From an uncultured Lachnospiraceae bacterium (GTDB lineage: Bacteria > Bacillota > Clostridia > Lachnospirales > Lachnospiraceae): a stretch of DNA of 45,812 nt. The DNA is taken from contig CAYMAY010000004.1 of NCBI GenBank assembly GCA_964388555.1, positions 1 to 45,812 on the forward strand, written 5' to 3'. Below are positions 12,932 to 30,632 of this stretch, piece by piece (position 1 is the first letter of the stretch; each line of letters opens with the position of its first letter). The position numbers and the translations under genes are program-made. Under the pieces are notes generated by a model that was given only the letters and a program-made list of their open reading frames with translations, was not told the origin of the DNA and did no database searches.

Positions 12932-13687
12932 ATGTCAGTTACGATCAAGTCGCCGCATGAAATTGAATTAATGAGACATGCGGGTAAGCTTTTGGAAGAG
13001 GTTTTCGATAGGTTACAGGAAATAGTTAAACCGGGTATTTCCACATGGGAAATAGACAAAAAAGGTGAGGAATTCATAAGAAAAAGCGGGTGCGTACCGA
13101 ATTTTCTTAACTACGAAGGTTTTCCGGCTTCAATCTGCACATCAATTAATAATGCAGTTGTCCATGGAATTCCCAGTAAGAAGATTATCCTTGCCGAGGG
13201 CGATATAATCAGCCTTGACTGTGGTCTCATATACAAGGGATACCATTCCGACATGGCGAGAACATTCGGAGTCGGTGAAATATCGGAGAATGCGCAAAAG
13301 CTTATTGACGTAACGAAACAGTCCTTCTTCGAAGGAATAAAATTCGCAAAAGCCGGAAATCATCTGCACCAGATATCTGCAGCAATAGGTAATTACGCCG
13401 AGAGCTTTGGCTACGGAGTCGTAGAGGATCTTGTGGGACACGGAATCGGAACGTCACTTCATGAGGATCCGGCGATACCGAACTTCCCGTGCAAAAGCCG
13501 TGGAATACGCCTGAGAGCCGGAATGACTCTTGCCATCGAGCCTATGATCAACGAAGGCACTTACGAGGTTGAATGGCTGGATGACGACTGGACAGTCGTT
13601 ACGGCGGACGGAAAGCTTTCCGCCCATTACGAAAACACGGTACTCATAACAGACGGTGAGCCGGAGATTCTTACTCTAAGCCATTGA
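12932..13687 (+). CDS. map: type I methionine aminopeptidase
   Basis: About 251 aa with the metal-ligand blocks DCGLIYKGYHSDMARTF, HGIGTSLHE and EPMIN. The start could be ATG 12932 or GTG 12923. Confidence 0.94.
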   Translation: MSVTIKSPHEIELMRHAGKLLEEVFDRLQEIVKPGISTWEIDKKGEEFIRKSGCVPNFLNYEGFPASICTSINNAVVHGIPSKKIILAEGDIISLDCGLIYKGYHSDMARTFGVGEISENAQKLIDVTKQSFFEGIKFAKAGNHLHQISAAIGNYAESFGYGVVEDLVGHGIGTSLHEDPAIPNFPCKSRGIRLRAGMTLAIEPMINEGTYEVEWLDDDWTVVTADGKLSAHYENTVLITDGEPEILTLSH

Positions 13688-13765
13688 CATCTGAAAACAA
13701 CGAAAGTACATTATGAAGCACTCTCGGATTTTGAGAGTTCAGTACGTATAAACAGGAGGAAATAT

Positions 13766-13984
13766 ATGTCTAAATCAGACGTAATAGAAGTAGAAGGAAA
13801 GGTTCTTGAGAAGCTTCCGAATGCAATGTTCAAGGTAGAACTTGAAAACAAGCACGTTGTTCTGGCGCACATCAGCGGAAAGCTCAGAATGAACTTTATC
13901 AGAATACTTCCGGGTGATAAGGTGACGATAGAGCTGTCGCCGTATGATCTTGATAAGGGACGTATTATTTGGCGTGACAAGTAA
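13766..13984 (+). CDS. infA: translation initiation factor IF-1
   Basis: 72 aa, [28 protein letters not shown]...SPYDL.KGRI..R. Confidence 0.97.
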
Positions 13985-13993
13985 AAAACACTA

Positions 13994-14022
13994 TTGCTTT
14001 TTTGAAATATAAACGATATGAT
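13994..14022 (+). promoter_or_regulatory. promoter-like element TTGCTT-17 nt-TATGAT immediately after infA
   Basis: -35 TTGCTT at 13994-13999 and -10 TATGAT at 14017-14022 with a 17-nt spacer. It would launch a transcript through the hairpin-rich spacer toward ftsZ. Confidence 0.4.
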
Positions 14023-14089
14023 ACTAAGGTCGAAAAGTTAAAAATTCTATTACAAACTTGTTTGTAAGAGAATTTTTAACTTTGAGACC
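14017..14089 (+). repeat. hairpin repeat unit A (AT-rich imperfect palindrome)
   Basis: Arms AAGTTAAAAATTCTATTACAAAC and GTTTGTAAGAGAATTTTTAACTT are complementary with one mismatch. The unit is homologous to unit B at 14187-14249. Confidence 0.7.
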
Positions 14090-14186
14090 TGCAAAAACAT
14101 GAGTAAGTAGCCATTTTTCGTAGAAAAATGAGCGGATTACGAATGTTTTTAAGCATTGCGAGAGTACAAAGTACGAAGCAATGCTG

Positions 14187-14256
14187 TATCATAGTATCGA
14201 AAAGTCAAAAATCTAATACAAGCTTGCTTGTAAGAGGATTTTTGAAGAGTTTTTTT
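14187..14256 (+). repeat. hairpin repeat unit B followed by a T7 run (terminator/attenuator-like)
   Basis: TCGAAAAGTCAAAAATCTAATACAAGCTTGCTTGTAAGAGGATTTTTGA aligns by eye with unit A at roughly 80 percent. T7 at 14250-14256. Confidence 0.65.
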
Positions 14257-14325
14257 GATTTTATATCAGAGTTTTAAACTTGAGGGGAAGCAAGTAAATA
14301 AAATTAAAAAAGGAGGAAAACTTCT

Positions 14326-15510
14326 TTGTTAGAGATAATGACAAATGATTCGGAAGGCGCTGCAAAGATCATAGTTGTGGGCGTCGGCGGTGCAGGTAAT
14401 AATGCCGTAAACAGAATGGTTGACGAAGCAATAGGCGGAGTTGAATTTATAGGTGTAAACACAGACCATCAGGCTCTTGCAATGAGCAAGGCACCGACGG
14501 TTCTTCAGATAGGGGAGAAAGTCACAAAAGGCCTCGGAGCCGGAGCAAAGCCTGAAGTTGGTCAGCAGGCTGCAGAGGAGAGCATAGACGAGATCAAGTC
14601 TCTCATCGAAGGCGCTGATATGGTATTCGTTACCTGCGGAATGGGTGGCGGAACAGGTACGGGAGCAGCTCCCATCGTTGCAAAGGTTGCTAAGGAAATG
14701 GGCATCCTTACAGTCGGAGTTGTTACAAAGCCGTTCAAATTCGAGGCTAAAAAGCGTATGGAGAATGCGCTGGGCGGAATCGAAAAATTAAAAGAAAACG
14801 TAGATACGCTTATCGTTATTCCTAACGACAAGCTTCTCGAGATCGTAGACAGACGCACGACAATGCCGGAAGCTCTTAAGAAGGCAGACGAAGTGTTAAA
14901 GCAGGCTGTTCAGGGTATTACAGACCTTATTAATCTGCCGGCACTTATCAATCTGGACTTCGCAGATGTACAGACTGTCATGACCGACAAGGGAATCGCT
15001 CATATCGGTATAGGTGAGGGCAAAGGCGACGACAAGGCACTTGAGGCTGTTCAGCAGGCTGTTTCCAGTCCGCTTCTCGAGACGACGATTACCGGCGCAA
15101 CCCACGTTATCATAAACATTTCCGGAGATATAAGTCTTATGGATGCAAACGATGCCGCAAGCTATGTTCAGAACCTTGCAGGCGAGGATGCAAACATAAT
15201 ATTCGGAGCGATGTACGATGATTCTATCCCGGATTACGCAAAGATAACAGTTATCGCTACAGGTCTTCAGGAGCAGAAGAAGGAGAGCGCAGGCGCATCC
15301 AAATTCGGTACAACGGCAAAGAGCAGCACAAATGCAGGTTCATCATTTACGTTCCCGACGCTGAACGTTTCCAGTCATGCTCAGAGCCCGAAGCCGGCGT
15401 CAAATCCCGGCAAGCTCAGCAGCGTTTTACCGACTGCCAATGCACCGATAACCAGCAGAGTACCCAAGAAGGATATTCAGATACCTGATTTCCTTAAGAA
15501 CAGAAATTAA
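14326..15510 (+). CDS. ftsZ: cell division protein FtsZ
   Basis: [13 protein letters not shown], the tubulin signature [10 protein letters not shown], and a C-terminal [11 protein letters not shown] peptide. TTG 14326 lies 9 nt after AGGAGG (14311-14316); the alternative ATG is at 14338. Confidence 0.96.
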
Positions 15511-18105: not shown

Positions 18106-18720
18106 ATGAACATTTGTGTATACGGAGCGGCGAGTCAGAAAATAGAAGATAAGTATAAGGACGCCGTTGAGGAGCTCGGATATCTTATGGCACTTCGCGG
18201 ACATGATCTCGTATTCGGTGCCGGCGCCAGCGGCGTAATGGGCGCGGTCGCAAGAGGTGTTAAGCGAGGCAGAGGAAAGGTTACGGGAGTCATTCCGGAG
18301 TTCTTCAGGGACGAACAGATAGAAGCCGTATTCCAGCAGTGTGACGAGCTTATCTATACAAAGTCGATGCATGAGAGAAAAATGACCATGGAAAATCTGT
18401 CGGATGCGTTTGTTGTGGCGCCCGGCGGAATCGGAACAATGGAAGAGTTCTTCGAAACGCTCACATTAAAACAGCTTAGCAGACACACTAAGCCGATAGC
18501 TCTTTATAATATAGACGGCTTCTTTAATTATCTTGAATCGTTCATGTATGTTACGAAGGAAAAGAAGTTTATAAGAGCCAATTGTGATCTGCTTTATTTG
18601 TCATTTACCGATCTTGATGAGCTTTTCGATTATGTAGAGCATGGCGATGGTTCGTTCGGTATGTCTGTACATGACTTCAAGGATGGCGGAATAGAAAGAA
18701 TAAATAACAAAAGGGGATAA
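18106..18720 (+). CDS. LOG family (TIGR00730-type) nucleotide 5'-monophosphate nucleosidase-like protein
   Basis: 204 aa with GAGASGVMGAV and PGGIGTMEEFFE motifs; AAGGAGG SD directly upstream. Confidence 0.8.
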   Translation: MNICVYGAASQKIEDKYKDAVEELGYLMALRGHDLVFGAGASGVMGAVARGVKRGRGKVTGVIPEFFRDEQIEAVFQQCDELIYTKSMHERKMTMENLSDAFVVAPGGIGTMEEFFETLTLKQLSRHTKPIALYNIDGFFNYLESFMYVTKEKKFIRANCDLLYLSFTDLDELFDYVEHGDGSFGMSVHDFKDGGIERINNKRG

Positions 18721-18725
18721 GGATT

Positions 18726-18959
18726 ATGAGTTTTGAAAGAATCAGGGAGCTTATAGCAGAAATCGTAAGTTGCGATATAGATGAGATAACGATGGATACC
18801 AACATGAAAGAGGATCTCGGAATGGATTCCCTTGATGCTATGGAGCTTGTGATGTCCATAGACGAAGAACTTTGCGTTACCATTCCGGATGAAAAGGTTC
18901 CCGAGATGGTTTACGTAAAAGATCTTGTTGCCTACGTCGATGAAGATCTGGGAGAATGA
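18726..18959 (+). CDS. acyl carrier protein (orphan ACP)
   Basis: 77 aa, acidic, with the phosphopantetheine site DLGMDSLDAMELV. No fab or other lipid-synthesis genes are nearby. Confidence 0.8.
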   Translation: MSFERIRELIAEIVSCDIDEITMDTNMKEDLGMDSLDAMELVMSIDEELCVTIPDEKVPEMVYVKDLVAYVDEDLGE

Positions 18960-19047: not shown

Positions 19048-19461
19048 TTAAAAGCTTTTTTTCACGCGAAGGATATTTTTACCGTCTTTGTATTCATATG
19101 TTACTTCGTCTGTCATTTTTTTGACCATAAATATGCCAAGCCCCCCTATCTTGCGTTCTTCAGCGCTTAACGTAATATCGGGCTCGGGTGCGGTAAGCGG
19201 ATCGAATGGCTTGCCCTCGTCCGTAAATGTAAGTGTTATGAGGCGTGACTTATTTGTTATTTCAAGGGCAATATTAGCATCGCCGCCGTTGGCGTACGCA
19301 TAACGCGCTATATTGCTGAAAATCTCGTCTGTTGCTATAGACATTGTCATTATCATTTCCGGTGAGCAGCAGGCTTCTTCAAGTGTAGTTTCAATAAATT
19401 CGGCAACTATCGGCATGCTGTCCAGCTTAGCCGTAACCGTTATATCTTTCTTAACATCCAT
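19048..19461 (-). CDS. RsbW/SpoIIAB-like anti-sigma-type serine kinase (HATPase_c_2)
   Basis: 137 aa with DEIFSNIARYA (N-box-like) and GGLGIFMVKKMTDEV (G-box). Size is typical of partner-switching kinases. Confidence 0.8.
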   Translation of the reverse strand: MDVKKDITVTAKLDSMPIVAEFIETTLEEACCSPEMIMTMSIATDEIFSNIARYAYANGGDANIALEITNKSRLITLTFTDEGKPFDPLTAPEPDITLSAEERKIGGLGIFMVKKMTDEVTYEYKDGKNILRVKKSF

Positions 19462-19515: not shown

Positions 19516-21168
19516 TTATGATCTGCCTTTATATTCAAGGCACAGCATTGTTATATCGTCAAACTGATCGGCTTCTCCGACAAAGGCTTCGATGTCTTTT
19601 TTAACCGTGATCAATGTTTGCTTTGTATCGCATGAGCATGTTTTATTAAGGGCATTGCACATGCGATCAAGTCCGTAAAATTCCTGTGATGCGTTTTCGG
19701 CCTCGGGTATGCCGTCTGTGTAAAGGAAAATCCTGTCGCCGATTCCAAGAGTAAGGGAACCTTCTTTATATCTTATGCCTTCCATTCCGGCAAGAACAAA
19801 CCCGGGTTTAACATTGTATTCTTCATAGCTGCCGCCGGCTCTGTATATGAATGGCGGCTCGTGTCCGGCATTCACGTAGTTAAACTCGCCGGTTTCGGTA
19901 TCAAGTACGCCTTCGAATGCCGTTATAAACAGCCCCTCATTATTGCAGGAACAGAGCACATCGTTAACGGTGGAGAATACCTCGTTTAAGGCTATGCCGG
20001 GCTTTGTGTGGTCTTTTATCAGCGTTTTACCTATGACCATAAAGAGCGCCGCCGGTATTCCCTTGCCTGATACGTCTGCCATTACGACAGCCAGGTGGCG
20101 GTCATCAACCATAAATAAGTCGTAGAAGTCGCCGCCCACCTCCTTTGCGGGATTCATGGTAGCATATATATCGAATTCCGTCCGCTCGGGGAACGGCGGG
20201 AATATACACGGAAGCATGTCGGCCTGTATCTTCGTGGCCAGCGCAAGCTCTGTGCCGATGCGTTCTTTGTCCCTGGTCTCGCGGACAAGGTTTAACATGT
20301 ATTTCTTAAGATCTGATGTCAACGTTACAAGAGACGTCGAAAGGGATTCTATCTCGTCCTCCGAATGTATGCCGGGGTCGGAGTAGGAGAGCTTTTCCGG
20401 GTCGTCCTGTGTGCTGCTGTCGGTGACAAATTTTTCCGCCGCCGCCTGAATCTTAGAGACGGGTTCTATTACACTGCGGGACATCCAGCGGTAGATCAGC
20501 GCAAGGAATATCACGACCAGGGCGACAGTGGCGATAAGGACTAAGATAATGTAGTGTCCCAAAACGGCATATATATCGTCTACCGATATGTCCACGGCAA
20601 GTACGGCGATGGCCTCACCGTCAGAATTTATGAGGGGACACAATGCGGTATAATCGTGACCGTAGCTCGTTTCGTTGGAAAAGAAGCTTATTTCGTCGGA
20701 ATCCATGGCGTCTATGTAATGCTGTACAACGTCGGGAGAATAGGAATCTCCGGTGAGCTGACCAAGCCGGGCAAGAGTGTCGGATTCATGGTCTTCCTCG
20801 TACTGCGTAACTCCGGCAATGATATTCATCATGTTGTCGGTAGCGTCCGTGTTGAGGGGCTTAACGACGTACACGTATTCTATTTCGTAATTTTCTTTGA
20901 TCTCATTCAGCAGACCCTGAAGTTCTTCATACTCCTCGGATTGTTCGCCGGTTTCGATGCATTCCTCAAGATCGTCTGTATCAGTCATATCCGTAACGAA
21001 TTCGATAATACCGATCATATATGTATTGTATTGCTTATACATTCCGTTTATATACAGTATTGCACCTATAAAGCCTGTGGCGAAGCATGAGAGAATGCAA
21101 AATATGGCACAGCCGATAAGTATTTTGCGCCGCAGCGGACGTTTGTAGATTTGTTTTTTGTTCTTCAT
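19516..21168 (-). CDS. membrane-bound sensor PP2C (SpoIIE/RsbU family) serine phosphatase
   Basis: 550 aa. Order of elements: TM, an extracytoplasmic Cache-like region of about 170 aa, TM, a HAMP-like linker, then a PP2C core (ATKIQADMLP...EVGGDFYD...MADVSGKGIPAALFM...TDGIPEA). GGGAGGA SD at 21178-21184. Confidence 0.85.
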   Translation of the reverse strand: MKNKKQIYKRPLRRKILIGCAIFCILSCFATGFIGAILYINGMYKQYNTYMIGIIEFVTDMTDTDDLEECIETGEQSEEYEELQGLLNEIKENYEIEYVYVVKPLNTDATDNMMNIIAGVTQYEEDHESDTLARLGQLTGDSYSPDVVQHYIDAMDSDEISFFSNETSYGHDYTALCPLINSDGEAIAVLAVDISVDDIYAVLGHYIILVLIATVALVVIFLALIYRWMSRSVIEPVSKIQAAAEKFVTDSSTQDDPEKLSYSDPGIHSEDEIESLSTSLVTLTSDLKKYMLNLVRETRDKERIGTELALATKIQADMLPCIFPPFPERTEFDIYATMNPAKEVGGDFYDLFMVDDRHLAVVMADVSGKGIPAALFMVIGKTLIKDHTKPGIALNEVFSTVNDVLCSCNNEGLFITAFEGVLDTETGEFNYVNAGHEPPFIYRAGGSYEEYNVKPGFVLAGMEGIRYKEGSLTLGIGDRIFLYTDGIPEAENASQEFYGLDRMCNALNKTCSCDTKQTLITVKKDIEAFVGEADQFDDITMLCLEYKGRS

Positions 21169-24080
21169 TAGTTTTTATCCTCCCTGCCCGAGAATCTGTG
21201 GAACAGTCCGAGTATTCCCGTCGAAGCACCGAATATTAAAAGCGCAAATCTTATGTTAATTGACTCTATTATGCCGGCAAATATACTGGGTCCTAAGGAC
21301 TCGCCGATATTTTCCGAGAAATTATATATTCCCATCGCCCTGTCGGCGCCGTACGCCCTGGTAGCTCTAAGACCGAGATAATACGTCTGCTGTACGGGCT
21401 TTCCGAAGGATGAGCTTATACCCATTATAACAAGAGCCAGGATCATTCCGCCTATGGTTGGCGTCAGGGCATATATGACCATCGCCGCTATATTAAGTAT
21501 GAGGGCGATATACATTGAACCTGCGCCGAATCTTTTTGAAGCCCTGTCTGTAAGGGCGTTGGAAAGCAGTATTGCCGTCTGCGAATATATCATTATAAAC
21601 AGCGTACAGAGGGACTCACCGTATCCGTGGGCATCGCAGAAAAGCGGTACGTAGTAAAATACAAAGCTGCTGAATATGATATAAGGATTCTGGATGAGCA
21701 CCATAAATCCCAATACCTTTTTGTCGGATACATATCTACGGGTCGGAATGCTTCCGGAATCGTCTGTTTCGTCTGAGAGAGATCCGAGAAGACCGTCTAT
21801 CTTTTTAAGTAATACTCCGGAGATCAAAGCCAGGATCGCCCAGGAAATACATACGACGATAAAGACGTTCTGTCTTCCTGCCATCACGGCAAGCAGGGAA
21901 CCCGTTATCATTCCGAAGTTAATTCCCGAAAGATACGCGCTGTTGTATATGGAAAGACCACGTGTGCGGTTCGGCGTATCGCTTATGCAGCTTATGAGAA
22001 TGTAGACGGCGTTTGTGGAAAGACCTACGCCTATGCCGTCCAGCACCAGCCCGGCGAATGCCGTGTAATAATACGGGAACATGAATATAACAAGATTTCC
22101 CAAAAGAGAGCACATCGCCGAAATGATAAGCAGGCGTTTAAAGCCGAATCGTTTTATAAGGCGATTGCAGAACAGCGACATTACGCCTATGAGAAACAGG
22201 TTTATGGTTATGGGCAATGCTCCCGCGAAGCTTGCGAAGGCGCCGTCGAATATCTCCGCCTGACGCAGCAGGTATGCCGGCAGGAATGAAGCCGTCATGT
22301 TATAGGCGGCAAATATCAAAAATACCAGTATCCTTAATACGTGCCACGGCATGGCTTTCGTTGTCTTGAGAGATTCCGCATGGTAATCGTTGTAATTGCC
22401 GACGTACATGATTATCTCTACGGACACTATCCATACCAGCATGAGCATTACGAGAACGGAGAGGATAACACTCTGCATCATCTCCGAGATGGTGTCAGAT
22501 ATAACATAGGATTCTATGCCTACCGCCACGGCACCGCAGATCTCGCCGGTCGAATCCGTAACGGGAACCTTAACGGCGATGTATGTGCCGGATATATCCT
22601 CGACATTCTGATTCCACACGGCCTCGCCCGTATTTTTAAGCGTCACAAGGTCGTTCTGCTCATCTTCGTTTAAGGGGTAGTAAGCGCCTACGGACTGATC
22701 GAGATACGCTACAGCGTAGCCGGCAGAGCCGTCTGCGGGAATCTTAAGAATATTGCAGTATACCTGACGGCAGAACGCCACATCCATGGGGAAAGAACGT
22801 TCCATTATATCGCAGAGACGGTTGTAGGATTCGCCGCCGAATCCGCCGTTTTCTTCTATATCGGTGATATCGTCGCCATCTATCTGAGCTGCCACGGTAT
22901 ATGCCGAAACCTCGACCTGCTCACGTATCTTATCACCGTATTCGTCGGCGAATGAGTTGGTGAGTATGGTGCATATGATCACGGAAACGATGGCCACGGC
23001 CACGATGACGACACCCGACACGCGCTGTATGCGGGTGAGCCTGATGAGGGTGATAAATCTTATTACGCGCAGGCATACCATGATCAAAAGAACGACGCAG
23101 ACAACGGCGCAGATGATCCACAGAATCTGGAAGATCATTTCAGGCATGCCCTTTGAAAGCTCCGAGAATATGAATTCTTCATCGCCTTCGATCACATGAA
23201 TGCCGTCTTCGGCCGAAAGGATAAAGCCGCCATTTGCGGTAAATCCCGCAGTGACAGAGCCGCAAGAGTCCGTAGCAAACGAGCCGGACCGGGTTTCCTC
23301 ATTTACGAGACGCACCTCGTTGTCTACTATGTCGGTAAAATACAGGTCGTCGTCGTACATGGCGAGTTTGTACGGCACCACATAGCCGTCATCATTCTGA
23401 TAGGAATATATGACTTCGCCCGTGGTTTCGCCGTTGTTATATTTTGTTATGATGCCGGACTTGTCCAGTACGAACGTATGATCATCTGAAAAAAATACAT
23501 CGCTTACGGCATTTACGGCGTTTTCGTAAGGGATGCTTAAATCTCCTACGATTATCTCGTTTTCACGGCATTCTGCAAAGCATACATTGCCGTCAATGCG
23601 GGTTATTCCGTAAATGCTGCGCTTGCCCCTCTCCAGATCGGAGTGGTCAGACAGATAAACAGTTTCTATGTATTTTCCGTCGTTATCCAGATGTATAACA
23701 GCCTCCGTCGAAACAGACATTTCATCCCAAACGGATTCGGAGACATATATCCCGGATTCGTCAGCGTATATGTCGTCGATATAGGAAAAATCGCCGTTTT
23801 CGGTGCTTATATTTTCAACGGAAAAACGTATTTTGCCGTTCTCGTCAAAGCCTATGAGACGGGAGTGACCGCTGTCAGTCGCAACAAAGCCGCCATCCGC
23901 CATCTGTTCCGTCTGATACGTAAGATCCAGTATTGTGGTGGAGCTTGTGGCTTCCGATAAAGGCATGCGGAACATAAAACAAAAAGCGAAAAGCAGAGCC
24001 GTTATTATGATCAGAACCGCGTCTCTGCGGGTAAAACGGCGCAGCGTGATATATTCCTTAAGACTTTTAATGAATGACAT
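21168..24080 (-). CDS. fusion protein: two extracytoplasmic sensor-like domains (repeat/beta-propeller-like plus Cache-like) joined to a 12-TM MFS transporter core
   Basis: 970 aa. TM1 is at about aa 22-40, followed by about 290 aa of repeated D/G-rich strands and a TM hairpin. A Cache-like block of about 190 aa follows (GTYIAVKVPVTDSTGEICGAVAVGI). Then come 12 hydrophobic helices with an MFS loop motif (NRLIKRFGFKR). GAAAGGAG SD at 24091-24098. Confidence 0.75.
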   Translation of the reverse strand: MSFIKSLKEYITLRRFTRRDAVLIIITALLFAFCFMFRMPLSEATSSTTILDLTYQTEQMADGGFVATDSGHSRLIGFDENGKIRFSVENISTENGDFSYIDDIYADESGIYVSESVWDEMSVSTEAVIHLDNDGKYIETVYLSDHSDLERGKRSIYGITRIDGNVCFAECRENEIIVGDLSIPYENAVNAVSDVFFSDDHTFVLDKSGIITKYNNGETTGEVIYSYQNDDGYVVPYKLAMYDDDLYFTDIVDNEVRLVNEETRSGSFATDSCGSVTAGFTANGGFILSAEDGIHVIEGDEEFIFSELSKGMPEMIFQILWIICAVVCVVLLIMVCLRVIRFITLIRLTRIQRVSGVVIVAVAIVSVIICTILTNSFADEYGDKIREQVEVSAYTVAAQIDGDDITDIEENGGFGGESYNRLCDIMERSFPMDVAFCRQVYCNILKIPADGSAGYAVAYLDQSVGAYYPLNEDEQNDLVTLKNTGEAVWNQNVEDISGTYIAVKVPVTDSTGEICGAVAVGIESYVISDTISEMMQSVILSVLVMLMLVWIVSVEIIMYVGNYNDYHAESLKTTKAMPWHVLRILVFLIFAAYNMTASFLPAYLLRQAEIFDGAFASFAGALPITINLFLIGVMSLFCNRLIKRFGFKRLLIISAMCSLLGNLVIFMFPYYYTAFAGLVLDGIGVGLSTNAVYILISCISDTPNRTRGLSIYNSAYLSGINFGMITGSLLAVMAGRQNVFIVVCISWAILALISGVLLKKIDGLLGSLSDETDDSGSIPTRRYVSDKKVLGFMVLIQNPYIIFSSFVFYYVPLFCDAHGYGESLCTLFIMIYSQTAILLSNALTDRASKRFGAGSMYIALILNIAAMVIYALTPTIGGMILALVIMGISSSFGKPVQQTYYLGLRATRAYGADRAMGIYNFSENIGESLGPSIFAGIIESINIRFALLIFGASTGILGLFHRFSGREDKN

Positions 24081-25245
24081 AGTTGCCGTACTCCTTTCGA
24101 TTCAGGGGAGCGTCGAAGATAGTGTGGACATTGTCCTGAGACAGAAATTCCGGCAGAAGAATGCACGAAAGATTAAAGGCGTTTTTGTGCGCTTTGCGGC
24201 ATTTTCTGTAAGAATCCGTTTCGTCCATGCTGTCCACCTCGAGGATGTTTTCAGCACCGTAAAGATAATACGGCAGGGCAGGCATGGATATGTAGTCCTT
24301 GATGGATTCCAGTTTTCCCGCAGCCTTTGTAAGGGAATGCAGCGTTTTGCCCCGTTCGATAAAGGGCGCGCGTGCCTCGTAATATTTGCGCGTCAGGTCT
24401 TCACTTCTATCGTGAACCACATCACAATGCACATTAGGATATAATTCGCGAAGCCTGTCTATTACGTGCAGATATTTATCGCAGATTTCGTGGACAATGG
24501 CGCGGAAGTCGCTGATGGCCTTGTCCTTTACGTCCTTTGGTGTGTTTTCAAGAACTGCGCTCATATATTTTATGTAGGACATATCAGGCAGCGGGATGAC
24601 AACGGGAACATTCAGAAGCCTTGCGATATCGAAGGGATATTTGAGGAAAAACCATTCCTGTGGCGTGAGCCCCGTCTTCATGTTCTCAAACCGCAGATCA
24701 GATACATCAGAACCTCGTTCCAACAGAAATCCCCCCAGATCCTCATCCCGCAGCGATGAGGAATAAGGTTTTCCCGAATTAAAGTCGAAGCGTTCAAGAC
24801 TGCCGTCCTTAAGAAAAACATCGACAGTCACCTCATTTGAACCGAAAAGGCAGGGACCGCCTTCAACAGCCGAGCTTACGCCGTCATCAAGAGCCTTACG
24901 GAACGAATCCAAGCCGGACGTGAAATAAGGAAGCTTCGTTTTGGCGGAATATTCCAGACCGTTAAGCTGGGGCAGAATCTCTGTTATCACATTGTAATCA
25001 GCTATTTCAACCGTATTTTTATAGACGAGGGAATATTTGCCGTCGGCGTTTTTAAACGGCTCATAAAATTTCCTCGAGACTATCTGAAAATCCAGCATTT
25101 TCGGGTTACTCTTGTCATATACGGTGTTGTCGATGGAAATCCCTGCGTCTGCAAGGACTTCGGCGATCGATGCTTTGTTTATATTCATAAAATTATGCCA
25201 ATCATCTGAAGTCAATAATGTATGATATCGAAGTACAGGCTCCAA
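24067..25245 (-). CDS. hypothetical cytoplasmic protein (family not recognised)
   Basis: 392-aa ORF with no TM segment or signal peptide. The TTG start lies 5 nt after the nadE stop (first ATG at 25188), and the 3' end overlaps the next gene by 14 nt. Coding status is supported by the operon packing. Confidence 0.6.
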   Translation of the reverse strand: MEPVLRYHTLLTSDDWHNFMNINKASIAEVLADAGISIDNTVYDKSNPKMLDFQIVSRKFYEPFKNADGKYSLVYKNTVEIADYNVITEILPQLNGLEYSAKTKLPYFTSGLDSFRKALDDGVSSAVEGGPCLFGSNEVTVDVFLKDGSLERFDFNSGKPYSSSLRDEDLGGFLLERGSDVSDLRFENMKTGLTPQEWFFLKYPFDIARLLNVPVVIPLPDMSYIKYMSAVLENTPKDVKDKAISDFRAIVHEICDKYLHVIDRLRELYPNVHCDVVHDRSEDLTRKYYEARAPFIERGKTLHSLTKAAGKLESIKDYISMPALPYYLYGAENILEVDSMDETDSYRKCRKAHKNAFNLSCILLPEFLSQDNVHTIFDAPLNRKEYGNYVIH

Positions 25246-27161: not shown

Positions 27162-27326
27162 GTATGTTCTCCTGTTTAGACGATTGATTCATCTTTAAAT
27201 TTTAATTCATTACGGTATTTTAGGCAACAAGTTTACACGCCAGCGAAAAAAATAAAATGACAAACTCCGCGGTTTGTGACATACTTGATGAATATATACA
27301 CAAAGAATTCAGCAGGAGACAGGACT

Positions 27327-30300
27327 ATGGTAAACAATATCGATTCCGTAGTTAGCATAGGACATGAAAAGCGTGTAGAGGGGCTTAACAGTGCCTACAA
27401 TGCCCTTTCGGGTATCTTCTTTTCAATGCACCGCGTTGACGTTCTAAATAATACATATTCCGGTATCAAAACCACATCCACTATCCAGCATCTGACCATA
27501 CCAAATTCGGATAATTATGATGATAACGCCGATCGTATCATTCGCGGCGTTTCTTCGCAGTGGAGCCGCGATGAGGCGCTTCGTTTTGTGGAAAGAAGCA
27601 CGCTGCCTGAGCGCATGGCCGGAAAAAATCACATCGCAATGGAGTTTCTATCTTACGCGGCTGAACCGTGTAAGCTCCATTTCTTTAGAGAGGGAGAAGA
27701 TGTAAACGCGCCTCTGAAGTATGTGATCTTCGCAGTGGAAAAAGTGGATGAGGAAAAAACCCAGGCAATCATCAATGCCCTTTCACATGATTACAGAAAT
27801 GTATTCTGGATCAATCTGGATGATGGCGAAGCCCGTGTGCTCAAAATGAAAGACTATATTGGCGAGGGCATAGACGAGAAGGAAAATCAGAGATTTTCTT
27901 ATGGTGAAACCAGTGTTGCATATGTGGCAAAACGTATACATCCCGACGACAAAGAACAGCAGAAAAAAATGATCTCGCTGGAGCATTTGCAGGAGCATTT
28001 CAAGGATCACAATGAGCTCACCGGAAGTTATCGTGTTTTGGTGGATGGCGTGGTGCATCATTTCAGTTACGTATTTTATAAGCTTGCAAATCTCAATTCG
28101 GTTGTTGCGGGATTTCGAAATATCGATGACATTATTGAAAGACACACTGCCGAGGAACGTCATCAGCGCGAAGTGGAGCAGGCTTATCAGAACCGCTTAA
28201 AAGAGCAGCTTATGATATTCAATTCGCTTTCAAGCAATTTCAGGAATGTATATTTTGCGGATCTTAATGAAGAAACGGCAAGGATACTGAAGCAGGATTC
28301 GAGATATGTAGATCTTCTTGATCTGGATGGGTCAGAAGTTTTTCCGTTTGTCGCTGTACTCAAATACTGGATCGACAATGTGGTATACGAAGAAGACAGA
28401 GAAGAAATCCGCAAAGTGTTCGAGCTGGATAATATCAAACGTGCAATGGCAGCTCATAAAGAGCTTACGGGAAATTACCGCAGTCTGATCGATGGGGAGA
28501 TCCATCACTTCCAGTATAATCTGGTCAGTGTCAGCGAAGACGGTGTTAAGGCTGTTTTGGGCTATCAGAATATCGATGAAATCGTGGAACAGCACATAGC
28601 ACAGGAAAAGAAAGAAAGGGAATTGATGGAAGCGCGCAATCGCGAAGCAAGGGAGCGCGCGGAGGTTATTTCGTCTCTTTCAACCATATATTCCACTATT
28701 TTCAGAGCCGAGATCGACACACATAACTATGAGGTGCTGAATAGCGTTTCTCTTATGGATGATCTTGCCGGCGTTGACGGAAATTTTGACGAAGTAAAAG
28801 AAGAAATCATCACGGCGTTCATGGCACCTGAAATGAGAGATCAGATGCGGGAATTTCTGGATCTTAATACACTGGCGGCCCGTCTTAAAAATGTCAAGAC
28901 AGTTTCAACGGAATACCGCAATCCTGAGGGAAGATGGTTTCAGGCTCGTTTTATCACAAAGCGAAGAGACAAGGCGGGAAATGTCAAGGAAGTTCTCTAC
29001 GTTGCCCGGGACTGCACAGACGAAAAAATGCAGGAGCTGGAGCAGCAGAATCAATTGACAAATGCTTTGGCGGCGGCTCAGCAGGCCAGCAAGGCAAAGT
29101 CAACATTCCTTAACAGTATGTCTCACGATATCCGTACGCCTATGAATGCCATCATAGGATTTACGGCGCTTGCACAGACCCACATCAATGATCAGGAAAA
29201 GGTAAAGGATTATCTGGCTAAGATAAGCACGTCCAGTACTCATCTGCTCAGCCTTATAAATGATATTCTTGATATGAGCCGTATTGAGAGCGGTACCGTT
29301 AAGCTCGATGAAAAACCGGTGCATATTCCGGATATTCTGCATGATCTGCGGACGATGATACAGGGTCTTGTAAGCTCCAAGAACCTCAATCTCTATATTG
29401 ATACTCAGGATGTCATGCACGAGGATGTTATCACCGATAAGCTTCGACTTAATCAGGTGCTCATTAATATCGTTGGAAATGCCATTAAGTTTACACCGCC
29501 GGGCGGAGATATTATTATCCGACTTCTGGAGAAGCCTTGCGAAATGAAGAATCACGCGACATACGTATTTTCTGTCAAGGATAACGGAATCGGTATGTCG
29601 GAGAAATTCCTTGAGCATATATTCGAGTCGTTTTCAAGAGAATACAGCACAACGGTCAGCGGCATTCAGGGAACGGGTCTCGGAATGGCCATTACAAAGA
29701 ATATCGTTGACATGATGGGCGGCACCATAACCGTCGACAGCGTAGAGGGAAGAGGTTCATTGTTTACCGTCACGCTGAACATACGCCTTACAAATGTAGC
29801 CGTGCAAAACGAGCCCATACCGGAGCTTCTGGGCGCTAGAGCCCTGGTTGTGGATGATGATCTTGACACCTGCAGGAATGTCAGCAAGATGCTGCGTGAC
29901 ATTAAGATGCGTCCTGATTGGACGGCGTCCGGCAGGGAAGCCATTGTCCGTGCTCAGGATGCGGCGGAAATGAAGGACGAGTACAAGGTTTATATCATCG
30001 ACTACCTCATGCCGGATATGAACGGAATCGAGACGATCCGCAGAATCCGTCGCGTTATCAGCGAAGAGGCATCGATAATCGTTCTTACCGCCTACGATTG
30101 GGCAGACATCGAATACGAGGCAAGGGAAGCCGGCGTTACGGCGTTTGTGTCAAAGCCGCTGTTCATGTCGGAACTCAGGAATGCGTTAACCCAGACAAAA
30201 GAAGAGAATCTCGGTGCGCAGGAGGGAAAAGAGGTTTACGATTACAGCGGAAAGCATGTCCTTCTGGTTGAGGATAATGAACTTAACCGTGAGATCGCAA

Positions 30301-30632
30301 CGGCTATATTAGAGGAAGCCGGCATCAAGGTTGACAGTGCTTCAGACGGAACGGAAGCCGTTGATATTATGTACAAGGCGGATGATGACGAATATGATCT
30401 CATATTTATGGATATTCAGATGCCCAAGATGGACGGCTACACCGCAACCCACGAGATACGAACATTCGCGAACAACAAGAAGGCCAATATTCCTATCGTT
30501 GCCATGACGGCAAACGCGTTTGACGAGGACAAAAAGAAATCCCTCGAAGCAGGAATGAACGGCCACATCGCGAAGCCCATCAGCATCGAACAGATTGCGA
30601 AGGTTCTCGATGATATATTTGCAGGAAAGTAG
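27327..30632 (+). CDS. soluble hybrid sensor histidine kinase with tandem PAS-like modules and two receiver domains
   Basis: H-box SHDIRTPMNAI (His codon 29124-29126), N-box NAIKFTPPGG, G-boxes DNGIGM and GTGLGM. Two REC domains have Asp codons at 30000-30002 and 30411-30413. No hydrophobic helices. ATG 27327 lies 7 nt after AGGAGA; the ORF track opens at GTG 27276. Confidence 0.9.
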   Translation: MVNNIDSVVSIGHEKRVEGLNSAYNALSGIFFSMHRVDVLNNTYSGIKTTSTIQHLTIPNSDNYDDNADRIIRGVSSQWSRDEALRFVERSTLPERMAGKNHIAMEFLSYAAEPCKLHFFREGEDVNAPLKYVIFAVEKVDEEKTQAIINALSHDYRNVFWINLDDGEARVLKMKDYIGEGIDEKENQRFSYGETSVAYVAKRIHPDDKEQQKKMISLEHLQEHFKDHNELTGSYRVLVDGVVHHFSYVFYKLANLNSVVAGFRNIDDIIERHTAEERHQREVEQAYQNRLKEQLMIFNSLSSNFRNVYFADLNEETARILKQDSRYVDLLDLDGSEVFPFVAVLKYWIDNVVYEEDREEIRKVFELDNIKRAMAAHKELTGNYRSLIDGEIHHFQYNLVSVSEDGVKAVLGYQNIDEIVEQHIAQEKKERELMEARNREARERAEVISSLSTIYSTIFRAEIDTHNYEVLNSVSLMDDLAGVDGNFDEVKEEIITAFMAPEMRDQMREFLDLNTLAARLKNVKTVSTEYRNPEGRWFQARFITKRRDKAGNVKEVLYVARDCTDEKMQELEQQNQLTNALAAAQQASKAKSTFLNSMSHDIRTPMNAIIGFTALAQTHINDQEKVKDYLAKISTSSTHLLSLINDILDMSRIESGTVKLDEKPVHIPDILHDLRTMIQGLVSSKNLNLYIDTQDVMHEDVITDKLRLNQVLINIVGNAIKFTPPGGDIIIRLLEKPCEMKNHATYVFSVKDNGIGMSEKFLEHIFESFSREYSTTVSGIQGTGLGMAITKNIVDMMGGTITVDSVEGRGSLFTVTLNIRLTNVAVQNEPIPELLGARALVVDDDLDTCRNVSKMLRDIKMRPDWTASGREAIVRAQDAAEMKDEYKVYIIDYLMPDMNGIETIRRIRRVISEEASIIVLTAYDWADIEYEAREAGVTAFVSKPLFMSELRNALTQTKEENLGAQEGKEVYDYSGKHVLLVEDNELNREIATAILEEAGIKVDSASDGTEAVDIMYKADDDEYDLIFMDIQMPKMDGYTATHEIRTFANNKKANIPIVAMTANAFDEDKKKSLEAGMNGHIAKPISIEQIAKVLDDIFAGK

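Follow-up and report, generated by a model that had tools for sequence, protein, structure and literature searches.

A predicted propeller-Cache input module joined to an MFS permease in a Lachnospiraceae bacterium and its relatives: a candidate signal-gated translocator

The output end of a bacterial receptor is generally taken to be an enzyme or a DNA-binding domain, and transporters are generally taken to be controlled from the cytoplasm. In CbrA, a transporter domain is said to serve as the input to a kinase. Another connection between transport and signalling is the glucose-6-phosphate sensing system UhpC/UhpB of Escherichia coli, in which the gene for a protein with the major facilitator superfamily (MFS) fold lies beside that of a membrane-bound signal transducer, its presumed partner (PMC8154325). 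A comparable neighbourhood was found in 45,812 nucleotides of an uncultured Lachnospiraceae bacterium (assembly GCA_964388555.1, contig CAYMAY010000004.1), and this whole stretch is called the window in the following. Positions 21168..24080 of its minus strand are listed as an open reading frame (ORF) of 970 amino acids (aa) with an ATG start and a stop codon at 21168-21170, and the encoded protein is named sensor-MFS here. UhpC is a plain MFS protein with 12 transmembrane (TM) helices and a histidine kinase as partner, whereas sensor-MFS has an additional module of 570 aa with four TM helices, a phosphatase of the PP2C type as partner, and a third, enzyme-like gene in its vicinity. The dedicated transducer encoded with the transporter homologue was a PP2C in 55 of 60 evaluable loci and a cyclase or cyclase-like protein in a distant branch of the family.

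Several further systems share single features with sensor-MFS. Fused domains of MFS transporters are usually C-terminal, and CBS, CNBD, PAS and UspA domains have been named (PMC10710835; PMC8154325). These fusions also combine an MFS with regulatory domains in one polypeptide, but they and CbrA differ from sensor-MFS, in which the additions are N-terminal, predicted to be extracytoplasmic and equipped with their own TM helices, and in which the transporter stands in the output position. In Cache-HAMP receptors, i.e., sensor cyclases, histidine kinases and RsbU-type PP2C proteins such as Chlamydia RsbU (6mab), the input is likewise a single Cache domain between two TM helices, but in sensor-MFS an MFS permease follows the last of these helices, and a propeller and a TM hairpin precede the Cache domain. 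The outputs listed in a census of Cache domains are kinases, cyclases, cyclic di-GMP enzymes, phosphatases, methyl-accepting chemotaxis proteins, transcription factors and ion-channel subunits, and the words 'transporter' and 'permease' are absent from it (PMC4822843). PknD of Mycobacterium tuberculosis is a bacterial membrane signalling protein with an extracytoplasmic NHL propeller; its output is a kinase, however, and it has a single TM helix and neither a Cache domain nor a transporter. MprF unites a lysyl-phosphatidylglycerol synthase with a flippase, and distant relatives of sensor-MFS are coupled to enzymes of the LPG_synthase_C type, but here the translocator is an MFS and not the MprF flippase domain, and the putative enzyme coupled to it in the window, called unk392, is unrelated. 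LplT is an example of an MFS protein that translocates lipids (PMC8154325), and it may be speculated from this analogy that the substrate of sensor-MFS is a lipid. Compared with the partner switch RsbU/RsbW/RsbV, the window has a PP2C and an anti-sigma-type serine kinase, but no STAS antagonist within its 45.8 kb. The pieces, namely MFS, Cache domain, NHL-type propeller and the pair of PP2C and RsbW, are known; the literature searched contained neither their combination nor a description of the propeller-Cache-MFS architecture.

Kyte-Doolittle hydropathy analysis predicted 16 TM helices for sensor-MFS, four of which precede the MFS domain. A basic cytoplasmic N-terminus (residues 1-20, with 6 K/R) is followed by TM1 (residues 21-39; 23964..24020, like all coordinates of the gene on the minus strand) and the first outer domain, D1, assigned as an NHL/SGL-type beta-propeller (residues 40-318; 23127..23963). 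TM2 (319-341) and TM3 (353-373) form a hairpin around a basic, Arg-rich cytoplasmic turn (residues 319-373; 22962..23126). The second outer domain, D2, a single-Cache (PDC/PAS-like) domain (residues 374-538; 22467..22961), is bounded by TM3 and TM4 (539-560), and TM4 leads over a cytoplasmic linker of 20 residues (both together 22341..22466) to the 12-TM MFS permease domain (residues 581-970; 21171..22340), the hydrophobic segments of which span residues 581 to about 960. The two outer domains are acidic (55 D/E versus 15 K/R in D1, 29 D/E versus 8 K/R in D2), and the mean charges across the family show the same pattern. Hydropathy and charge thus place D1 and D2 outside the cytoplasm, judged from the parity of the helices and the positive-inside rule: 13 helices follow the Cache domain, TM4 and the 12 of the MFS, and therefore both domains are outside while the N-terminus of the MFS is inside. 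A previous reading of the bare sequence (in the following, the original prediction) had already proposed one N-terminal TM helix and an external location of both domains, in agreement with this topology. It had also recognized the 12-TM MFS, but its helix count behind the Cache-like region was twelve, one short of the 13 given here.

The central evidence for the role of the N-terminal module came from its occurrence in other proteins. A profile of residues 1-572 was searched against 1.84 billion representatives (50% clustering), and 2,646 proteins were matched at E <= 1e-3, 178 of them at E <= 1e-30. The best 150 matches included 121 with the propeller-Cache-MFS architecture, the MFS of the family being assigned by a local hidden Markov model (HMM). 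Seventeen were short pieces of 109-550 aa, which are probably fragments, and one protein of 717 aa had no Pfam match. Eleven proteins of 903-943 aa matched the profile from about residue 20 to 560 and then continued with a class III adenylate/guanylate cyclase (Guanylate_cyc) in place of the MFS. A Pfam HAMP match was present in ten of them, and TM4 with the linker of sensor-MFS corresponds to the HAMP slot of these cyclase-type relatives (P0162, P0137 and others). At one locus (L070) such a cyclase is encoded two genes away from a sensor-MFS, and the N-terminal modules of the two proteins are 34% identical over 632 aa; four further loci (L071, L073, L103 and L109) resemble it. A word-indexed search with a broad alignment of the module missed the cyclase relatives and added NHL/SGL propeller proteins only.

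This reuse ahead of HAMP and cyclase domains indicates that propeller, hairpin, Cache domain and TM4 form a portable transmembrane signal-input module. As judged from the sequence comparison, the 570-aa region is a genuine signal-input module, and the MFS holds the output position, where HAMP and an enzyme stand in the sister proteins. This arrangement suggests that control is exerted on the transporter. A sensing role had been part of the original prediction, and the recurrence of the module is its strongest and an independent support. The further proposal of a transceptor fared less uniformly: sensing was upheld, while for an MFS that reports its substrate to the phosphatase there is a competing mechanism, a sensor-gated translocator, which accords at least equally well with the module swap and the flanking enzymes.

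For structural characterization D1 (residues 40-318) and D2 (residues 373-540) were cut from the family alignment, and each was modelled with AlphaFold2 using 18 sequences. The model of D1 was all-beta, with a predicted local distance difference test (pLDDT) value of 93 and a predicted TM-score (pTM) of 0.89, and a Foldseek comparison with the PDB returned beta-propellers only. The best superpositions over the whole length were obtained with six-bladed NHL domains of 277 aa, those of TRIM71 (8j72, 9jur; TM-score 0.66-0.67, E about 1e-7), followed by Thin (6d69, TM-score 0.62) and the NHL domain of Mei-P26, and the NHL domains ranged from 0.61 to 0.67. At the sequence level the family profile matched NHLRC2 (E 1.5e-3) among the PDB sequences, together with Brat and, weakly, the PknD sensor (1rwi). 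The Pfam family SGL (PF08450) gave a weak match at residues 243-299 (17-22 bits versus a cut-off of 26.3), and the distant matches of the N-module profile were NHL/SGL proteins. D69, H72, R74, E126 and K153 were invariant in the propeller across the aligned homologues. Based on the model, D1 is probably an NHL-type propeller with six blades, a number taken from the structural matches. The repeat-rich region of about 290 residues had been foreseen as a beta-propeller or another repeat fold, and the former is what the modelling returned.

The model of D2 (pLDDT 81.5) comprised a long N-terminal helix (residues 2-27 of the excised domain), four to five beta-strands arranged as a PAS-like sheet, and a C-terminal helix. 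Single-Cache/PDC sensors were on top of the Foldseek list (E 1e-5 to 1e-3, TM-score 0.5-0.6), and the matches included 5ere, the formate chemoreceptor 8py0, KinD, WalK, CitA, DcuS and the periplasmic domain of Chlamydia RsbU. The Pfam family sCache_3_2 stayed below its cut-off (18.6-20.9 bits versus 28.4; E 4e-4 with the isolated domain), and its weak match at residues 497-535 covers the strand pattern on which the Cache-like assignment of the original prediction had been built. PF17203 is on record for 12 homologues. By its modelled fold D2 is a single-Cache domain, although the Pfam score falls short of the curated threshold, and the expected succession of a TM hairpin and a Cache-like region of about 190 aa was recovered. 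Taken together, domain and structure searches characterized the N-terminal region as two folds of the sensor type, predicted to be extracytoplasmic, in line with what had been proposed.

The permease domain was assigned with high significance. Pfam MFS_1 (PF07690) matched residues 584-931 over nearly the complete profile (3-347 of 347) with 101.6 bits versus a cut-off of 33.4 (E 5.4e-29), and hydropathy analysis predicted two six-helix bundles with both termini inside, joined by an acidic, Ser/Asp-rich central loop of 29 residues (761-789). No MFS protein of the PDB was found at E <= 1, neither with phmmer and the MFS domain nor with the family profile. The MFS halves (56-58% mean pairwise identity) and the Cache domain were the most conserved parts of the protein, at 55-58%, compared with 42% for the propeller. 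About 30% of the MFS columns were at least 90% conserved, and many polar or charged residues within the membrane were among them, including D681, E822, K894, E923 and E927; N594, N627, N690 and Q797 are further polar residues kept within the membrane. Their conservation argues for a binding cavity that has been kept in the MFS. The loop between TM2 and TM3 of the MFS reads NRLIKRFGFKR; G646 is nearly invariant in it, and the position of the motif-A Asp is occupied by K/R family-wide (consensus LVRRxG). Motif A (G-x-x-x-D-R/K-x-G-R-R/K) is degenerate in many active MFS proteins.

A search with the full-length protein yielded 58 relatives, about 55 of which had 938-998 aa and covered 94-100% of the query at 35-77% identity; those that have a name are all called only 'MFS transporter'. 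Fifty homologues could be aligned over their full length; every domain holds invariant residues, and the junction is unbroken, with a conserved TM4 and linker and with E555 as an invariant position. Identical and near-identical proteins of 970 aa were present on independent contigs. A scan of one genome per species revealed 69 sensor-MFS loci in three phyla, and the hosts are Lachnospiraceae, Oscillibacter, Erysipelotrichaceae, Anaerovoracaceae, Selenomonadaceae, Eggerthellaceae, Coriobacteriaceae and many rumen Treponema. [Clostridium] aminophilum DSM 10710, Pseudobutyrivibrio sp. MD2005 and Blautia sp. MSJ-9 are cultured strains among them, and the Holdemanella biformis locus belongs to a metagenome-derived genome. 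One homologue, P0051, has 1450 aa and, as called, contains an additional complete MFS of the Sugar_tr type (residues 26-443, E 9e-54) ahead of the propeller-Cache-MFS part, i.e., two MFS units in one polypeptide. A fusion with unk392 had been considered for this protein and was rejected because the extra N-terminal part is the Sugar_tr MFS. An ORF of 1325 aa in locus L022 was likewise discarded as an unk392-MFS fusion; it is a longest-ORF artefact, with the two genes in different frames and Pfam matches only from about residue 800.

In the window sensor-MFS is the second gene in a string on the minus strand, which has the order unk392, sensor-MFS, PP2C and RsbW-like kinase. The upstream gene unk392 (24067..25188, minus strand) encodes a cytoplasmic protein of 373 aa, the form called in public records, and its end overlaps the start of sensor-MFS by 14 nucleotides (nt), preceded by AAGGAG. 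At the other end, the stop codon TAA of sensor-MFS and the ATG of the PP2C gene share one base at 21168 (TAATG), and a GGGAGGA motif precedes this junction. Scans for promoters and terminators gave results no better than shuffled sequences. The PP2C gene (19516..21168, minus strand) encodes a membrane protein of 550 aa (Pfam SpoIIE, E 5.4e-43) with the layout TM helix, extracytoplasmic domain of about 165 aa, TM helix, HAMP-like linker and SpoIIE/PP2C catalytic domain, in which we take the stretches GGDFYD, ADVSGKG, YTDG and FDDIT to be PP2C motifs. The outer domain of the PP2C had no significant BLASTP similarity to the Cache domain of sensor-MFS. The PP2C gene is followed by a gene for an RsbW/SpoIIAB-like serine kinase of 137 aa (19048..19461, minus strand; Pfam HATPase_c_2, E 1.2e-22; weak match to NCBIfam RsbW). 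NadE, which is encoded upstream in the window, was rejected as a member of the conserved unit, as it had no matches in the related loci.

The first three genes of this string are conserved as a trio. Among the 69 loci, unk392 was directly upstream of sensor-MFS in 55 of 56 evaluable cases, an orthologous PP2C gene (E 1e-130 to 1e-260) was directly downstream in the 55 of 60 mentioned above and at another place of the locus in a further 3, and 47 of 49 loci, which span Bacillota, Coriobacteriia and Treponema, had the full trio. The more distant locus L077 has it too. The overlap of 14 nt between unk392 and sensor-MFS is kept even in Treponema loci. The proposed translational coupling to the phosphatase is thus backed by the TAATG junction and by the adjacency across the family; the linkage claim was correct with regard to the conserved PP2C neighbour and had overlooked unk392 as a third conserved gene. 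PP2C and kinase genes are not neighbours of every sensor-MFS. An RsbW-like kinase is encoded in 21 of the 69 loci and a STAS protein in 17, and two loci, L020 and L022, have unk392 and sensor-MFS but no PP2C. At L020 (Selenomonadaceae), a multi-helix ORF of 477 aa (12973-14406, plus strand) takes the place of PP2C with a 4-nt overlap, and judged by eye it presumably resembles sodium:alanine (AGCS-type) symporters; at L022, a large surface protein is encoded downstream instead.

The protein unk392 had no relative in Pfam (24 members scanned), in NCBIfam or, by profile, among the PDB sequences. Its family comprises at least 302 clusters, every one of which is named 'hypothetical', and conserved motifs include VEGGPCLFG, PLPDMSYxKYL, KDYISMPALPYYL and DETDSYRKCRKAHK; the Treponema versions contain an insertion of about 70-90 aa. 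Comparisons by hhalign with LPG_synthase_C, represented once by one sequence and once by a profile of 29, and with Formyl_trans_N were negative (probability for LPG_synthase_C 0.1%).

The neighbourhood changes in the distant branch, defined here as contigs with a sensor-MFS of 22-30% identity and represented by 32 loci from a metagenome scan, a count that overstates the independent support since many of these loci are near-identical human-gut contigs. The commonest order is a 563-aa cyclase-like protein with TM helices, sensor and HAMP, an LPG_synthase_C-like protein (PF09924) of about 301 aa, sensor-MFS, and a second LPG_synthase_C-like protein, with 4-nt overlaps around sensor-MFS. LPG_synthase_C-like genes occur on one or both sides of the distant sensor-MFS, and no fewer than 12 of the 32 loci have them on both; L091 (3250-9746) is one such human-gut contig, and L084, L087-L100, L104 and L107 are similar. 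In other distant loci a GNAT or a Formyl_trans_N gene adjoins sensor-MFS. In the 563-aa partner Pfam calls HAMP and does not call the C-terminal cyclase-like domain. The region from the N-terminal sensor to the HAMP-like linker of the PP2C is 26% identical to this partner over 243 aa (E 4e-22), which indicates that the second sensor is conserved too and that its output has been swapped between PP2C and a cyclase-like domain. No LPG_synthase_C gene was found in the window; two Oscillibacter loci of the window type carry an LPG_synthase_C-like gene, which in L010 is directly upstream of unk392.

The reading that we favour, with a confidence somewhat short of an even chance, is that sensor-MFS is a signal-gated MFS translocator for the product of the neighbouring enzyme and that it is coordinated with partner-switching signalling. 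The propeller/Cache module would sense a ligand or the state of the envelope, and the signal would pass via TM4 and the 20-residue linker to helix 1 of the MFS and bias its alternating-access cycle, so that the MFS would be the effector. The cargo could be the product or substrate of the translationally coupled cytoplasmic enzyme encoded upstream. The enzymes of the distant branch (LPG_synthase_C-type, GNAT and formyltransferase) would suggest export or flipping of a small molecule or lipid that bears an acyl or aminoacyl group. A split analogue of the synthase-plus-flippase MprF would be attractive for the family as a whole, and for the window it would follow from gene position only. The PP2C would sense in parallel and set a partner-switching output that matches gene expression or enzyme activity. 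A more far-reaching version appears doubtful, albeit worth stating: sensor-MFS would be a one-component transmembrane receptor in which the MFS acts as output domain, as a flippase or exporter gated by a ligand, and together with the coupled cytoplasmic enzyme, unk392 in the window and elsewhere an MprF-synthase-like enzyme, a GNAT or a formyltransferase, it would form a hitherto unrecognized, signal-controlled envelope-modification system that is wired to PP2C or cyclic-nucleotide signalling and is widespread in gut and rumen anaerobes.

Four observations weigh against the signal-gated translocator. The replaced motif-A Asp could mean that the transport cycle is impaired, which would favour a pure receptor. 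Neither tblastn nor HMM searches found a STAS gene in the 45.8-kb window, and hence the partner-switch substrate of this genome must lie elsewhere. The redundancy of the human-gut contigs reduces the weight of the distant branch. Apart from the two Oscillibacter loci, the analogy between unk392 and the LPG_synthase_C enzymes is one of gene position only, because unk392 has no similarity to LPG_synthase_C, formyltransferase, Pfam or PDB families.

Among the alternatives, a transceptor or co-sensor of the UhpC kind survives best, though it is rated as rather unlikely. In this case the MFS, alone or together with the outer domains, would bind or transport an external compound, its conformation would be read in the membrane by the PP2C, and the latter would dephosphorylate a STAS protein and thereby operate the partner switch; signalling would be the main job, and transport would be secondary or lost. 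The tight and widespread adjacency of the PP2C gene with its overlapping codons is in accord with this model, as are the RsbW-like kinase and STAS genes in part of the loci (21 and 17 of 69) and the replacement of the motif-A Asp, and UhpC itself provides the precedent of an MFS sensor that signals to a neighbouring transducer (PMC8154325). However, the comparison with the HAMP-cyclase relatives puts the N-terminal module in the input and the MFS in the output position. The PP2C and its cyclase-like counterparts have an extracytoplasmic sensor of their own and need no co-sensor, and the model leaves the translationally coupled enzyme genes unexplained. In addition, unk392 and sensor-MFS stay together at L020 and L022, where PP2C is missing.

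An ordinary nutrient importer is improbable. According to this explanation the propeller would either act outside the cell as a lactonase or lyase, in the manner of SGL, Drp35 or Vgb, or serve as a binding scoop; propeller and Cache domain would prepare or deliver the substrate, the upstream enzyme would metabolize the import, and the PP2C would merely be co-regulated. In Pfam, D1 is weakly similar to SGL and relatives are weakly similar to Vgb_lyase, which points in this direction, together with Foldseek matches to the lactonase Drp35 and a putative 6-phosphogluconolactonase, and the five invariant propeller residues D69, H72, R74, E126 and K153 could be catalytic. The P0051 variant with its extra Sugar_tr MFS would also be compatible with import. 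Yet the reuse of the whole module before HAMP-cyclases is hard to square with a domain that does no more than catalyse or deliver, the NHL domains that D1 matches best in structure are not enzymes, and a signalling enzyme stays paired with sensor-MFS from phylum to phylum even where the type of enzyme changes. An artefact of assembly or annotation by which two or three genes were merged through a frameshift or an overlooked stop, the remaining concern of the original prediction, is practically ruled out by an uninterrupted ORF that is conserved in homologues and cultured strains, with more than 55 full-length homologues at 34-77% identity and the 69 loci keeping the architecture of about 970-1000 aa.

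Some other features of the window were recorded. The Clostridiales-1 RNA (Rfam RF01699) is present in two copies on the plus strand, at 1735-1903 and 14019-14191 (76 and 132 bits), and positions 1214-1297 hold an S10-Clostridia ribosomal leader. Only 5 nt separate a gene of the LOG/'lysine decarboxylase' family (204 aa) from a following gene for an acyl-carrier-protein-like protein of 77 aa (18106-18959, plus strand; PP-binding, E 5e-13), which is an orphan, with no adjoining synthase noted among the listed ORFs. Divergent from the gene string that extends from nadE to rsbW, positions 27276-30632 of the plus strand encode a hybrid histidine kinase of 1118 aa (HisKA, HATPase_c and two receiver domains), the first approximately 600 residues of which are without a Pfam domain but are duplicated internally (TGSYRVLVDGVVHHFSYVFYKL and TGNYRSLIDGEIHHFQYNLVSV).

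If the favoured reading is true, the outputs of bacterial receptors would come to include 'transport', by way of an extracytoplasmic input module wired directly to an MFS permease. The family is large and extends over Bacillota, Coriobacteriia, spirochaetes and further, unassigned metagenome lineages, and its conserved three-gene module includes a wholly uncharacterized protein family, unk392. Sensor-MFS would thus offer a testable link between the export of envelope components or metabolites and PP2C or cyclic-nucleotide signalling in abundant anaerobes of the gut and the rumen.

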